Source of the DNA: Escherichia coli
GTDB lineage: Bacteria > Pseudomonadota > Gammaproteobacteria > Enterobacterales > Enterobacteriaceae
Assembly (NCBI RefSeq): GCF_003334815.1
Contig: NZ_QOWO01000010.1
Strand: one strand, 5' to 3'
DNA length: 64,000 nucleotides
Shown here: positions 8,293 to 52,756 of the stretch, in pieces
How the letters are laid out: each line of letters begins with the position of its first letter
Numbering within the stretch: the stretch's first letter is position 1
Program-made: the position numbers and the translations under genes
Notes under the pieces: model-generated
Database searches by the model: none
What the model saw: only the letters and a program-made list of their open reading frames with translations
What the model was told of the DNA's origin: nothing

Positions 8293-8733
8293 TCACCCTT
8301 TGGCCTGTAACTCAATGATATTATGCTCAAGTTTTGCGATGAGCGTAATCAGTTGCTCCAGTTCCTCTGCGGAGATGCCATGTAATATTTCCGCGCGGGT
8401 TTTGTTAATAACAGCTTCCATTTCGCTGATCAGCGGCTCTGCCTTTTCCGTCAGTTTAATACGTTTAGCCCGACGATCGCTGGCACAAGTTTGACGCGAA
8501 ATTAACCCTTTTTCTTCCAGTTGGTCCAGAGTACGGACCAGTGATGGCTGCTCGATGCCAATCGCTTTTGCCAGTTGAATTTGCGACTGGTCTGGAGGTA
8601 ACTGATGGATATTGTGTAACGTAACCCAATGGGTTTGTGTTAACTCCAGCGGTTTCAGGCGATGGTCTATCAGAGCACGCCATATGCGCACCAACCGTGC
8701 CAGATCAGAACCTAGTGGCGATTCCAATTTCAT
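8293..8733 (-). CDS. slyA: MarR-family transcriptional regulator SlyA
   Basis: ORF ...[34 protein letters not shown]... recognised as SlyA; true start may be the second ATG (8727). Confidence 0.93.
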
Positions 8734-8927
8734 CTCCTTATAATTAGCTTGCTAAGATATTATGCGGCTTTTAGAATAGTGTGCAGCAATTGTATTGCTA
8801 AAACAAATGTATTGCTGCATTTGGTTACCGTCAGACATATTTTTCAGAAATTGCGCGTAAATTTTTCGCACTTAAAGAATATTTATTAATCTAACGCAAT
8901 ATATTCGGTCGTAAAGGAATCTACTTT

Positions 8928-9164
8928 GTGAAGTTTATGCTCAATGCAACAGGATTGCCCTTACAAGATCTGGTGTTCGGTGCGTCCGTCTACTTTCCTC
9001 CGTTTTTCAAAGCATTCGCGTTTGGATTCGTCATCTGGCTTGTCGTACACCGCCTGCTTCGTGGCTGGATCTACGCCGGTGACATCTGGCATCCCTTGTT
9101 AATGGATTTATCGCTGTTTGCGATTTGCGTTTGCCTTGCTCTGGCAATACTGATTGCGTGGTAA
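8928..9164 (+). CDS. ydhI: small inner membrane protein, DUF1656 (AaeX paralog)
   Basis: 78-aa hydrophobic ORF directly upstream of a HlyD-family gene. Confidence 0.85.
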
Positions 9165-9166
9165 CT

Positions 9167-10024
9167 ATGTCAATTAAAACAATTAAGTATTTCTCAACAA
9201 TCATTGTAGCGGTAGTTGCGGTTCTTGCCGGATGGTGGCTGTGGAATTATTACATGCAATCTCCGTGGACACGCGACGGGAAAATACGCGCAGAACAGGT
9301 TTCTATCACCCCACAGGTGTCGGGACGTATTGTTGAGCTGAATATAAAAGACAACCAGCTGGTTAACGCGGGGGATCTTCTGCTCACGATCGATAAAACG
9401 CCCTTTCAGATCGCCGAGCTGAACGCACAGGCTCAGCTGGCGAAAGCGCAATCTGACCTCGCAAAAGCCAATAACGAAGCGAATCGTCGTCGTCATCTCT
9501 CACAAAATTTTATTTCTGCCGAAGAACTCGATACCGCTAACCTCAATGTTAAAGCGATGCAGGCCAGTGTTGATGCCGCACAGGCGACGCTGAAACAGGC
9601 ACAATGGCAACTGGCGCAAACGGAAATTCGCGCCCCGGTGAGTGGATGGGTGACTAACCTTACTACCCGCATCGGCGATTACGCTGATACCGGGAAACCG
9701 CTGTTTGCCCTTGTCGACAGCCACTCGTTTTACGTCATTGGTTATTTTGAAGAAACCAAGTTGCGCCATATCCGCGAAGGTGCACCAGCACAAATTACCC
9801 TCTATAGTGATAACAAAACGTTACAGGGTCACGTTTCCAGTATCGGTCGGGCGATTTATGATCAGAGCGTTGAAAGTGACTCAAGCCTTATTCCGGATGT
9901 TAAACCTAACGTCCCCTGGGTTCGACTCGCCCAACGCGTTCCCGTCCGCTTTGCGCTGGATAAAGTCCCAGGCGATGTCACGTTGGTGTCGGGCACCACC
10001 TGTAGCATTGCCGTAGGTCAATAA
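9167..10024 (+). CDS. ydhJ: membrane fusion protein, HlyD family (AaeA paralog)
   Basis: [27 protein letters not shown]... with coiled-coil region; start set at ATG 9167, 2 nt after the ydhI stop. Confidence 0.9.
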
Positions 10025-12036
10025 TGAACGCATCGTCATGGTCCTTGCGCAATTTGCCCTGGTTCAGGGCCACGCTGGCGCAATGGCGTTATGCGTTACG
10101 CAATACCATTGCCATGTGTCTGGCGCTGACGGTTGCCTATTATTTAAATCTGGATGAACCCTATTGGGCGATGACCTCGGCTGCAGTGGTTAGCTTTCCC
10201 ACCGTTGGCGGTGTTATCAGCAAAAGCCTCGGACGCATCGCTGGCAGTTTGCTCGGAGCCATTGCGGCACTGCTTCTTGCCGGGCATACGCTCAATGAGC
10301 CGTGGTTTTTTCTATTGAGCATGTCGGCGTGGCTTGGCTTTTGTACCTGGGCCTGTGCGCACTTCACGAATAACGTCGCGTATGCATTTCAACTGGCGGG
10401 CTACACGGCTGCCATCATCGCCTTTCCGATGGTTAATATTACTGAGGCCAGCCAGCTGTGGGATATCGCTCAGGCGCGCGTTTGCGAGGTAATAGTCGGT
10501 ATTTTGTGCGGCGGCATGATGATGATGATCCTGCCGAGCAGTTCCGATGCTACTGCCCTTTTAACCGCATTGAAAAACATGCACGCCCGATTACTGGAAC
10601 ATGCCAGTTTACTCTGGCAGCCTGAAACAACCGATGCCATTCGTGCAGCACATGAAGGGGTGATTGGGCAGATACTGACCATGAATTTGCTGCGTATCCA
10701 GGCTTTCTGGAGCCACTATCGTTTTCGCCAGCAAAACGCGCGCCTTAATGCGCTGCTCCACCAGCAATTACGTATGACCAGTGTCATCTCCAGCCTGCGA
10801 CGTATGTTGCTCAACTGGCCCTCACCGCCAGGTGCCACACGAGAAATTCTCGAACAGTTGCTGACGGCGCTCGCCAGTTCGCAAACAGATGTTTACACCG
10901 TCGCACGTATTATCGCCCCGCTACGCCCGACCAACGTCGCCGACTATCGGCACGTCGCCTTCTGGCAGCGACTACGTTATTTTTGCCGCCTTTATCTGCA
11001 AAGTAGTCAGGAATTACATCGTCTGCAAAGCGGTGTAGATGATCATACCAGACTCCCACGGACATCCGGCCTGGCTCGTCATACCGATAACGCCGAAGCT
11101 ATGTGGAGCGGGCTGCGTACATTTTGTACGTTGATGATGATTGGCGCATGGAGTATTGCTTCGCAATGGGATGCCGGTGCCAATGCATTAACGCTGGCAG
11201 CAATTAGCTGCGTACTCTACTCCGCCGTCGCAGCACCGTTTAAGTCGTTGTCACTTCTGATGCGCACGCTGGTGTTACTTTCGCTATTCAGCTTTGTGGT
11301 CAAATTTGGTCTGATGGTCCAGATTAGCGATCTGTGGCAATTTTTACTGTTTCTCTTTCCACTGCTGGCGACAATGCAGCTTCTTAAATTGCAGATGCCA
11401 AAATTTGCCGCATTGTGGGGGCAACTGATTGTTTTTATGGGTTCTTTTATCGCTGTCACTAATCCCCCGGTGTATGATTTTGCTGATTTTCTTAACGATA
11501 ATCTGGCAAAAATCGTTGGCGTCGCGTTGGCGTGGTTAGCGTTCGCCATTCTGCGTCCAGGATCGGATGCTCGTAAAAGCCGCCGCCATATTCGCGCGCT
11601 GCGCCGGGATTTTGTCGATCAGCTAAGCCGCCATCCAACACTGAGTGAAAGCGAATTTGAATCGCTCACTTATCATCACGTCAGTCAGTTGAGTAACAGC
11701 CAGGATGCGCTGGCTCGCCGTTGGTTATTACGCTGGGGTGTAGTGCTGCTGAACTGTTCTCATGTTGTCTGGCAATTGCGCGACTGGGAATCGCGTTCCG
11801 ATCCGTTATCGCGAGTACGGGATAACTGTATTTCACTGTTGCGGGGAGTGATGAGTGAGCGTGGCGTTCAGCAAAAATCACTGGCGGCCACACTTGAAGA
11901 ATTACAGCGGATTTGCGACAGCCTTGCCCGTCATCATCAACCTGCCGCCCGTGAGCTGGCGGCAATTGTCTGGCGGCTGTACTGCTCGCTTTCGCAACTT
12001 GAGCAAGCACCACCGCAAGGTACGCTGGCCTCTTAA
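10024..12036 (+). CDS. ydhK: putative efflux protein, FUSC/ArAE family (AaeB paralog)
   Basis: 670-aa multi-TM ORF; start overlaps the ydhJ stop (TAATG). Confidence 0.9.
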
Positions 12037-52423: not shown

Positions 52424-52688
52424 TTCAACCCAGCAAACGCAGGGGCTTTACCGTAAAACATGCTTTTTGCCTGCTTTTAATAAGCATAGACCCTGATGTG
52501 TGGGTTAACAGGCACGCTAAGAATTAGGTATCTCATTGTTAGATAATGGTTATTATCTAAGGAGCATTAAGGCTGTGATGAAAAAGAAAAAGTTGTATTG
52601 AAAATGACTATTTAAGAGATAGGTAAAAAAGTGCAGCGTTCAGAAATAAGAAAACCCTTAAGTCTGTGCGACACAGGCTTAAGGGTTT

Positions 52689-52756
52689 CTACCCCATCCG
52701 GCGCTTATCTCCGGCACTCTCAGTGGCTTAGCTCTTGAAGGGGCGATAAGAATAAT
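52689..52756 (-). ncRNA. rydB: probable RydB small RNA (boundaries approximate)
   Basis: sufA-ydiH intergenic location where RydB is reported; position taken from remembered reference coordinates. A strong minus-strand hairpin with U-rich tail lies immediately downstream at about 52635-52680, so the true 3-prime end is uncertain. Confidence 0.4.

Follow-up and report, generated by a model that had tools for sequence, protein, structure and literature searches.

What does ydhIJK, an ordinary, annotated and known core operon of Escherichia coli, carry across the envelope, and by what means? The question touches on general issues of the FUSC (ArAE) transporters, namely their natural substrates, the energy of transport, the role of the DUF1656 subunit and the docking of the adaptor to TolC, and it connects with aromatic-acid tolerance in strain engineering and with ligand sensing by SlyA. 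The locus itself adds little to these issues, being a named core operon with regulation and one substrate published for its Salmonella ortholog; SlyA control and the fusaric-acid phenotype in Salmonella are both in the literature. On our reading, which we consider probable, the three genes of the ydhIJK operon encode an exporter that moves organic anions across the envelope; its cargo is most likely aromatic carboxylates, fusaric acid among them.

Organization of the ydhIJK locus

The window analyzed here is a 64,000-nucleotide stretch of E. coli DNA. Its segment 8928–12036 contains ydhI, ydhJ and ydhK (Table 1), is 100% identical in DNA sequence to E. coli K-12 MG1655 and matches the RefSeq annotation. 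An initial annotation, made from the sequence, had placed here a DUF1656 gene, a gene for a HlyD-family membrane fusion protein (MFP) and a FUSC gene, tightly joined and next to a divergent slyA. The coordinates proved exact and the Pfam assignments hold; both junctions can be read in the sequence (TAA-ct-ATG, a 2-nt gap, between ydhI and ydhJ; TAATG, a 1-nt overlap, between ydhJ and ydhK, in CAATAATG), and the MG1655 annotation has slyA adjoining on the minus strand. Salmonella bears out the GTG start of ydhI: its sequence keeps GTG but has ATA in place of the downstream ATG.

Table 1. Genes and predicted regulatory features at the ydhIJK locus (positions in the 64-kb window)
Feature	Position	Strand	Description
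slyA	8293–8727	-	MarR-family regulator; RefSeq TTG start at 8725–8727; in-frame ATG at 8731–8733
SlyA consensus palindrome	8744–8755	none	Exact match, TTAGCAAGCTAA; overlaps the -35 hexamer of the sigma-70-like promoter
Predicted sigma-70-like promoter	8749–8777	+	TTGCTA-17-TAGAAT toward ydhI; 9/12, consensus match only
SlyA-like 12-mer	8790–8801	-	9/12 matches, TTGTATTGCTAA
Predicted sigma-E-like promoter	8868–8894	+	GCACTT-N16-TCTAA, ~30 nt upstream of ydhI; motif scan
SlyA-like 12-mer, second	8883–8894		9/12 matches; overlaps the -10 of the sigma-E-like promoter
Shine-Dalgarno-like AAGGA	8914–8918	+	9 nt before the ydhI GTG; AAAGGAA kept in Salmonella
ydhI	8928–9164	+	GTG start, 78 aa, DUF1656
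ydhJ	9167–10024	+	ATG start, 285 aa, membrane fusion protein
ydhK	10024–12036	+	ATG start, 670 aa, FUSC family
sodC	12037–12558	-	Convergent neighbor; bounds the operon, outside the pump

A promoter and terminator scan of positions 8600–12700 yielded 2 promoter-like sites (3.6 expected) and 5 terminator-like sites (5.2 expected), with no terminator between the ydhIJK genes or past ydhK. Because these counts are not above chance, the scan is neutral on co-transcription, apart from the absence of intergenic space. At the downstream end, the stop codons of sodC and ydhK abut with zero intergenic bases (TAATTA), and ydhK-sodC is among the excludon candidates supported by RNA-seq (PMC12288877). In the ORF list and the MG1655 annotation, no outer-membrane factor gene was found in or adjoining ydhIJK, which is flanked by slyA and sodC. 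Base composition gave no sign of a foreign island (the genes have 49–55% GC, the promoter region alone being AT-rich), and an Rfam search of the locus and its leader returned no RNA family.

YdhI, YdhJ and YdhK are paralogs of AaeX, AaeA and AaeB

Pairwise alignment detected homology for all three proteins, bearing out the proposal that ydhIJK is a paralog of AaeXAB: YdhI shared 33% identity with AaeX (E 1e-5), YdhJ shared 41% with AaeA (E 5e-68), and YdhK shared 24% with AaeB over 521 residues (E 1e-27). The YdhJ/AaeA and YdhK/AaeB identities had been published before (PMC12506092). The best-scoring NCBIfam model for YdhJ was the AaeA equivalog NF007850, at 243.4 bits against a cut-off of 400, and the AaeB equivalog NF007916 gave YdhK 120.3 bits against a cut-off of 870; since these scores are far below the equivalog cut-offs, YdhJ and YdhK are paralogs, not orthologs, of AaeA and AaeB. 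No NCBIfam model matched YdhI. Judged by sequence comparison, AaeXAB is the closest paralog set in E. coli, and MdtN and MdtO are more distant, MdtO aligning with YdhK over 198 residues only (E 6e-6). YtcA, the small protein encoded upstream of mdtNOP, was considered as a relative of YdhI and rejected as unrelated, no similarity being found.

YdhI is assigned to DUF1656 by its profile match (Pfam PF07869, E 1.8e-14), two hydrophobic segments in the hydropathy plot (about residues 21–44 and 52–78) and its location beside MFP and FUSC genes. Transposon fitness data from several bacteria show cofitness of DUF1656 genes with the MFP and FUSC genes next to them (bioRxiv 10.1101/072470). Little changed when aaeX, the paralog of ydhI, was deleted (PMC9301823), so that any real role of YdhI is putative.

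YdhJ is a membrane fusion protein, that is, a periplasmic adaptor. It matched the Pfam domains HlyD_D23, CusB_dom_1 and Biotin_lipoyl_2 (E 1e-12 to 1e-17), scored 135.2 bits against TIGR01730 (RND_mfp; cut-off 94.9) and matched the solved adaptors EmrA, AcrA and MacA (E 1e-9 to 1e-18). Its hydrophobic N-terminus (residues 1–30) includes a membrane anchor at about residues 8–30. The alpha-hairpin is short; in the adaptor alignment it has the same length as that of AaeA and is 27+24 residues shorter than that of MdtN.

YdhK is predicted to be a fused pair of ALMT-fold modules

YdhK is a FUSC protein over its full length (PF04632, E 5.4e-140; residues 20–661 of 670 on model positions 1–658 of 660) and a member of the ArAE family (TC 2.A.85), where it forms TCDB entry 2.A.85.1.6, described as uncharacterised (PMC10971958). 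The chain consists of two modules related by internal duplication, each with a transmembrane helical domain and a helical soluble domain. Profile-profile comparison was needed to detect the duplication, because plain BLASTP of the N-terminal against the C-terminal half was not significant (E 0.19); hhalign with a 90-sequence alignment matched the two halves over 167 columns (probability 95.7%, E 9.3e-9), and the helix pattern in the predicted model agrees. For modeling, the first homologue search returned close orthologs only (77–96% identity), which was too shallow, and a search of representative sequences added diversity.

The resulting structure prediction (pLDDT 93) had ALMT channels as its top fold matches and displays the ALMT fold. 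At the sequence level, YdhK had no match to the ALMT Pfam family (PF11744), and its best PDB sequence match, GmALMT12, was marginal (E 0.4); the same PDB search returned no solved FUSC protein. The first membrane domain carries the conserved basic and aromatic residues K67, R71, R152, W103 and Y120. Compared with the plant ALMT channels (AtALMT1, AtALMT9 and GmALMT12/QUAC1) and the mycobacterial protein Rv2571c, for YdhK channel activity is hypothetical. YdhK is a fused two-module chain, whereas ALMT is a homodimer, and it has a periplasmic adaptor and a small membrane protein as partners, both of them lacking in ALMTs. As YdhK has two ALMT-fold modules, one chain could plausibly mimic the plant ALMT channel dimer.

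We raise, as a tentative idea that we think somewhat unlikely to be right, that YdhK works not as a proton-coupled pump but as an ALMT-like anion channel formed by one chain, in which the membrane potential drives the flux and which is docked onto a periplasmic adaptor; the idea would extend to AaeB and further FUSC transporters. "Pump" may be the wrong word for the energy coupling, since the ALMT relatives are channels. If the idea is true, ydhIJK would encode a channel-based envelope exporter with an energy coupling unlike that of RND, MFS and ABC tripartite pumps, and YdhI would be a gating or assembly subunit of the channel. The fused module pair with its conserved basic residues offers a hypothesis and concrete residues for testing.

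The slyA–ydhI intergenic region and its reported control by SlyA and sigma-E

The Salmonella Typhimurium YdhIJK proteins are orthologs of those of E. coli (78%, 83% and about 85% identity for YdhI, YdhJ and YdhK), and synteny is fully kept from pdxH to gloA, with a 25-nt overlap of ydhK and sodC where the E. coli genes abut. The E. coli slyA–ydhI intergenic region comprises 200 bp with 31.5% GC. On the slyA side, 150 nt of this region are conserved in Salmonella, as is the SlyA palindrome; the 70 nt nearest ydhI, which hold the sigma-E-like promoter of E. coli, have diverged.

The palindrome is the sole match without mismatch to the SlyA consensus across the 64-kb window and is identical in Salmonella. 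SlyA-like sites with at most 3 mismatches number 3 in the 200 bp, compared with 0.625 per kb window-wide. The ydhI promoter region thus contains the consensus site expected of the SlyA regulon, and binding itself comes from the literature, in which E. coli SlyA bound the slyA–ydhI intergenic fragment in EMSA (PMC5797941). In Salmonella, SlyA represses ydhI ~19-fold in vitro and 2 mM salicylate relieves the repression (PMC6401476); the repression, too, is confirmed by RNA-seq (PMC12506092), and the linkage of ydhIJK to slyA across Enterobacteriaceae has also been published (PMC6401476). The sign of the effect was the opposite in E. coli K-12, where ydhIJK RNA rose 2.2-fold on SlyA overproduction (PMC5797941), and the direction of control there is presumptive.

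Both hexamers of the sigma-70-like promoter are kept in Salmonella, and the sigma-E-like promoter is a relaxed version of the GGAACTT-N16-TCNAA type; both calls are motif matches only, in a region where promoter-like matches were not above chance overall. In published work, PydhIJK is named among known sigma-E start sites, with ydhIJK RNA ~20-fold higher on sigma-E induction (PMC7075262), and a sigma-E regulon list includes ydhK (PMC2685091); ydhIJK is absent from the main text of the Rhodius 2005 paper on the sigma-E regulon.

The AT-rich promoter region would also suit an operon that is largely cryptic in E. coli K-12, silenced through this region, without measurable contribution and redundant with AaeXAB, AcrAB-TolC and others, SlyA being an anti-silencer and not a ligand-released repressor. 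The table that records the 2.2-fold increase consists mostly of cryptic operons silenced by H-NS (PMC5797941), and other Enterobacteriaceae have repeatedly lost ydhIJK (PMC6401476). IS3 or ISApl1 has inserted into ydhJ or ydhK in some E. coli genomes, and in-frame ydhJ-ydhK deletion fusions also occur. However, every one of the 5426 complete E. coli genomes has the locus, 5411 of them with 80% or more of it contiguous, and the protein conservation to Salmonella argues for purifying selection. The strong response to sigma-E likewise speaks against silence, as does a study of systemic infection by uropathogenic E. coli that listed ydhK, from transposon mutants, as a candidate fitness gene (PMC3855560), and we regard a cryptic operon as decidedly unlikely.

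Substrate and direction of transport

In Salmonella, deletion of ydhIJK delays growth in 30 ug/ml fusaric acid, and a slyA mutant grows better (PMC6401476). The earlier statement that substrate and inducer were unknown is dated for Salmonella, in which fusaric acid and salicylate are documented (PMC6401476), and partly for E. coli, given the SlyA EMSA (PMC5797941) and the sigma-E start (PMC7075262), but it still stands for the physiological substrate, which is not established (PMC12506092, PMC10971958). Our literature search found no paper testing the substrate of E. coli ydhIJK itself. By analogy with the Salmonella ortholog, the source of the loss phenotype (PMC6401476), we infer that the E. 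coli proteins would export fusaric acid or other aromatic carboxylates.

Greater sensitivity to fusaric acid on loss of the Salmonella operon, together with greater tolerance on derepression, is the pattern of efflux (PMC6401476). Import of aromatic or fatty carboxylates might be argued from DUF1656-MFP-FUSC clusters that are important for the use of 4-hydroxybenzoate or octanoate as carbon source, for which the authors considered uptake or efflux (bioRxiv 10.1101/072470). Besides the Salmonella pattern, secreted IAA was reduced on loss of AaeAB in Dickeya (PMC13395407), elsewhere membrane fusion proteins belong to exporters, and anion uptake through an ALMT-like pore would be disfavored by the inside-negative membrane potential, so that we give import hardly any credence.

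A different view of export is that ydhIJK serves as a relief valve for an endogenous carboxylate and not in xenobiotic defense, with YdhK as an ALMT-like channel or uniporter that the membrane potential powers and that envelope or metabolic stress (sigma-E, SlyA ligands) opens, fusaric acid being incidental. We hold this to be possible, though short of an even chance. The authors of the Salmonella work, who stated that no clear function is established, favored export of an unidentified endogenous compound as the likelier primary role (PMC12506092), and AaeAB itself was proposed as a metabolic relief valve, according to the title of Van Dyk 2004 as cited there. Anion channels gave the best structural matches to YdhK, and a proposal for the mycobacterial FUSC-domain protein Rv2571c is that it exports alpha-ketoglutarate as an ALMT-like channel (bioRxiv 10.64898/2026.03.10.710584). 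Control of ydhIJK by sigma-E (PMC7075262) would fit the view, as would the lowered viability on ydhK overexpression (PMC2685091), which an unregulated channel might cause, although toxicity of overexpressed membrane proteins is non-specific. Against it, no endogenous substrate has been identified, the energy coupling is not fixed by fold similarity, and it is not obvious why a plain channel should need an adaptor, when ydhJ is conserved and closely joined to ydhK.

Proposed mechanism

In the export of aromatic carboxylates that we prefer, YdhK would be the inner-membrane translocator, with its two ALMT-fold modules in one polypeptide, and K67, R71, R152, W103 and Y120 in its first membrane domain would contact the carboxylate; its energy coupling may be channel-like or pump-like. 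YdhJ, an adaptor of the AaeA type anchored in the membrane, would surround the periplasmic face of YdhK and hand the substrate onward, possibly to TolC as the outer-membrane exit. YdhI, of the AaeX (DUF1656) kind, would be an accessory subunit with two helices. Transcription would start within the AT-rich region shared with slyA, where SlyA binds, presumably at the perfect consensus site and the two weaker sites; in Salmonella, SlyA keeps ydhI repressed and is released by an aromatic carboxylate, salicylate for example. Through a further promoter of the sigma-E type, the operon would be tied to envelope stress.

Comparison with known systems

Burkholderia Bucl8-FusCDE, Stenotrophomonas FuaABC and E. 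coli MdtNOP, like ydhIJK, combine a FUSC inner-membrane protein with an MFP, and the Burkholderia system has a small 67-aa protein too. Their operons encode an outer-membrane channel of their own, whereas ydhIJK does not; fusaric acid resistance in Burkholderia employs the same component set plus an outer-membrane factor (PMC7682875). Such fusaric acid resistance pumps either export fusaric acid and p-hydroxybenzoate or are responsive to them (PMC7682875).

AaeXAB (YhcRQP) is the closer counterpart, with the same families in the order DUF1656-MFP-FUSC, tight spacing (gaps of 7 and 5 nt in aaeXAB; a 2-nt gap and a 1-nt overlap in ydhIJK), a divergent regulator and no outer-membrane factor gene. 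The regulator is the LysR-family AaeR at aaeXAB; ydhIJK has no divergent LysR-type activator but the MarR-family SlyA in that place, and, compared with aaeXAB, it has an extra sigma-E promoter (a motif match here; PMC7075262). Aromatic carboxylates, p-hydroxybenzoate and p-coumarate among them, are the cargo of AaeXAB (PMC9301823, PMC12506092), and the Dickeya AaeXAB exports IAA and confers resistance to salicylate (PMC13395407).

Identity and organization of the ydhIJK locus

In a DNA comparison, the 8700–12100 region of the window matched E. coli K-12 MG1655 at 100% identity; its RefSeq genes are slyA, ydhI, ydhJ, ydhK and sodC. Every one of the 5426 complete E. coli genomes in the search carried the region, and in 5411 of these 80% or more of it was contiguous. 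The ydhI and ydhJ ORFs are separated by a 2-nt gap (TAA-ct-ATG), and ydhJ and ydhK overlap by 1 nt (CAATAATG). These junctions, read from the sequence, are those claimed in the initial annotation, whose observation of ydhIJK as a whole is confirmed by RefSeq and by the sequence. The GTG start of ydhI, which is preceded by AAGGA, is kept in Salmonella; the neighbouring in-frame ATG is not. An upstream in-frame TTG, which would add 14 codons to ydhJ and carry it into the last part of ydhI, was rejected as the ydhJ start, because it is the annotated ATG that aligns with the AaeA N-terminus. The start of slyA is TTG in RefSeq, with an in-frame ATG two codons upstream, and also varies between gene callers on Salmonella contigs (146 versus 144 aa). 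Some E. coli (NZ_CP091756.1, NZ_CM128543.1 and NZ_CP025048.1) carry IS3-family or ISApl1 insertions within the ydhJ/ydhK region, and mcr-1 isolates are reported to have ISApl1 inserted in ydhJ as well (PMC5404521).

Features of the ydhIJK region and Rfam matches in the window
Feature	Position	Strand or direction	Remarks
slyA start, in-frame ATG	8731-8733		146 aa
slyA start, RefSeq TTG	8725-8727		144 aa
SlyA consensus palindrome	8744-8755		exact copy
sigma-70-like promoter	8749-8777	towards ydhI	TTGCTA-17-TAGAAT, motif match
SlyA-like site	8790-8801		9 of 12, motif match
sigma-E-like element	8868-8894		GCACTT-N16-TCTAA, motif match
SlyA-like site	8883-8894		9 of 12, motif match
AAGGA	8914-8918		
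ydhI	8928-9164		GTG start, 78 aa
ydhJ from TTG 9125	9125-10024		rejected
ydhJ	9167-10024		ATG start, 285 aa
ydhK	10024-12036		670 aa
ydhK/sodC stops	12034-12039		TAATTA
STnc550	25429-25819	-	396 bits, gathering threshold
two adjacent tRNA genes	34411-34565	+	gathering threshold
HPnc0260 'antisense RNA'	34530-34692	-	gathering threshold; overlaps second tRNA, opposite strand
rydB sRNA	52684-52744	-	gathering threshold
RprA sRNA	58348-58455	+	gathering threshold

The stop codon of ydhK is followed directly by that of the convergent sodC, with zero intergenic bases, and a terminator scan of this end detected no terminator-like structure above chance. Because the stops abut and no terminator is recognizable, the convergent transcripts, as judged from the sequence, must overlap. 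The ydhK-sodC pair is included in a list of excludon candidates (PMC12288877), and the two Salmonella ORFs share 25 nt (contig L004, 6679-6703). Elsewhere in the window, the HPnc0260 match is likely to be a model artefact stemming from the tRNA.

Relationship to AaeXAB

YdhI is a DUF1656 protein (Pfam, E 1.8e-14) with two hydrophobic segments in its hydropathy profile. YdhJ contains HlyD, CusB and biotin-lipoyl-like adaptor domains (Pfam) behind a single N-terminal anchor, and YdhK matches FUSC over its full length (Pfam, E 5.4e-140), with approximately 200 polar residues between two hydrophobic blocks. Pairwise comparison with the aaeXAB and ytcA-mdtNOP products of MG1655 gave 33% identity over 51 aa for YdhI/AaeX (E 1e-5), 41% over 282 aa for YdhJ/AaeA (E 5e-68) and 24% over 521 aa for YdhK/AaeB (E 1e-27); the values were 33% for YdhJ/MdtN (E 1e-44) and 23% over 198 aa for YdhK/MdtO (E 6e-6), and YdhI and YtcA were unrelated. 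AaeXAB is therefore the closest E. coli paralogous set, and the homology-based reading proposed initially was correct. The best NCBIfam matches of YdhJ and YdhK were the AaeA and AaeB equivalogs, at 243 bits (cut-off 400) and 120 bits (cut-off 870), respectively, and YdhJ passed the cut-off of the generic adaptor model TIGR01730. On sequence grounds, YdhI, YdhJ and YdhK are paralogs, not orthologs, of AaeX, AaeA and AaeB. In several bacteria, DUF1656 genes show cofitness with the MFP and FUSC genes beside them (bioRxiv 10.1101/072470), and p-coumarate tolerance changes only slightly when aaeX is deleted (PMC9301823).

Control region and published phenotypes

The SlyA consensus palindrome, TTAGCAAGCTAA, has its only exact copy in the window within the slyA-ydhI intergenic region (200 bp, 31.5% GC), where it shares bases with the -35 hexamer of a sigma-70-like promoter. 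Two weaker SlyA-like sites, of a kind occurring at 0.625 per kb window-wide, are also present in this region, and one overlaps the -10 of a sigma-E-like element; promoter-like matches in the region overall were not above chance expectation in the motif scan. Between Salmonella and E. coli, the 150 nt nearest slyA, where the palindrome and the sigma-70-like promoter lie, are near-identical, whereas the 70 nt nearest ydhI have diverged, and with them the sigma-E-like element (8868-8894 versus L004 3700-3740).

E. coli SlyA binds this 200-bp intergenic fragment by EMSA, and SlyA overproduction raised ydhIJK RNA 2.2-fold (Curran et al. 2017, PMC5797941). The published effect in Salmonella has the opposite sign: SlyA repressed ydhI approximately 19-fold in vitro, 2 mM salicylate lifted this repression, growth in fusaric acid was delayed without ydhIJK and improved in a slyA mutant, and ydhIJK has been lost repeatedly among other Enterobacteriaceae (Will et al. 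2019, PMC6401476). Repression of ydhIJK by SlyA was also observed by RNA-seq in a study that also gives the YdhJ/AaeA and YdhK/AaeB identities (Will et al. 2025, PMC12506092). PydhIJK is among the known sigma-E start sites, with RNA approximately 20-fold up upon sigma-E induction (PMC7075262); another study counts ydhK in the sigma-E regulon and finds decreased viability upon its overexpression (PMC2685091). In uropathogenic E. coli, insertions place ydhK among the candidate fitness genes (PMC3855560), and TCDB lists YdhK (2.A.85.1.6) as uncharacterised (PMC10971958). Considering SlyA binding, salicylate relief, the fusaric acid phenotype and sigma-E control, this is a known and in part characterized locus, and the initial description of it as uncharacterised is partly outdated. 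Most of the checks suggested with that description have likewise been done, though chiefly in Salmonella. Our literature search found no paper assaying any substrate of E. coli ydhIJK itself.

A Salmonella enterica contig has the same gene order as E. coli from pdxH to gloA, with identities of 78% for YdhI, 83% for YdhJ and about 84-85% for YdhK, so that the Salmonella results can be transferred to E. coli as a working hypothesis. In one Salmonella isolate (L004 4001-6703), an in-frame deletion joins YdhJ residues 1-254 to YdhK from approximately residue 36, yielding a 900-aa adaptor-transporter fusion (P0048). Another protein, P0002 (845 aa), shares 99% identity with E. coli YdhK, also has adaptor (MFP) Pfam domains, and looks like a fusion of this type. 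Such fusions probably reflect inactivating deletions or errors in assembly.

Predicted mechanism and comparison with related systems

The most likely reading is that YdhK as translocator, YdhJ as adaptor and YdhI as accessory subunit export aromatic carboxylates under the control of SlyA and sigma-E. A sequence search for solved structures returned no FUSC protein, the best match to YdhK being soybean ALMT12 (E 0.4). YdhK homologues numbered 3092 at E <1e-3 among 50%-identity representatives. In an alignment of 90 full-length family sequences, W103, Y120, R152 and G159 were invariant, and K67, R71, G62, G78, G126, Y127 and W382 were at least 93% conserved. Profile-profile comparison of the alignment halves showed homology between the two membrane domains (probability 95.7%, E 9e-9); YdhK thus consists of two ALMT-type modules fused in tandem. 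ALMTs are homodimeric anion channels with a single central arginine-lined pore, and an ALMT-like mode has been proposed for the mycobacterial FUSC-domain protein Rv2571c (bioRxiv 10.64898/2026.03.10.710584). From the tandem modules and this channel mode, we infer that a single YdhK chain would form a pseudo-dimeric anion pathway in which K67, R71 and R152 may contact the carboxylate. This explicit pseudo-dimer reading is the only, mildly, new part of the analysis, and was foreshadowed by the Pfam clan structure and the 2026 preprint on a related protein.

YdhJ resembles the solved adaptors EmrA, AcrA and MacA by sequence match. In an alignment of YdhJ, AaeA and MdtN, the AaeA hairpin is equal in length to that of YdhJ, whereas MdtN has two symmetric insertions (27 and 24 residues), and hence a much longer hairpin. 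For MdtN, the dedicated outer-membrane partner is MdtP, whereas the operons of YdhJ and AaeA encode no such partner.
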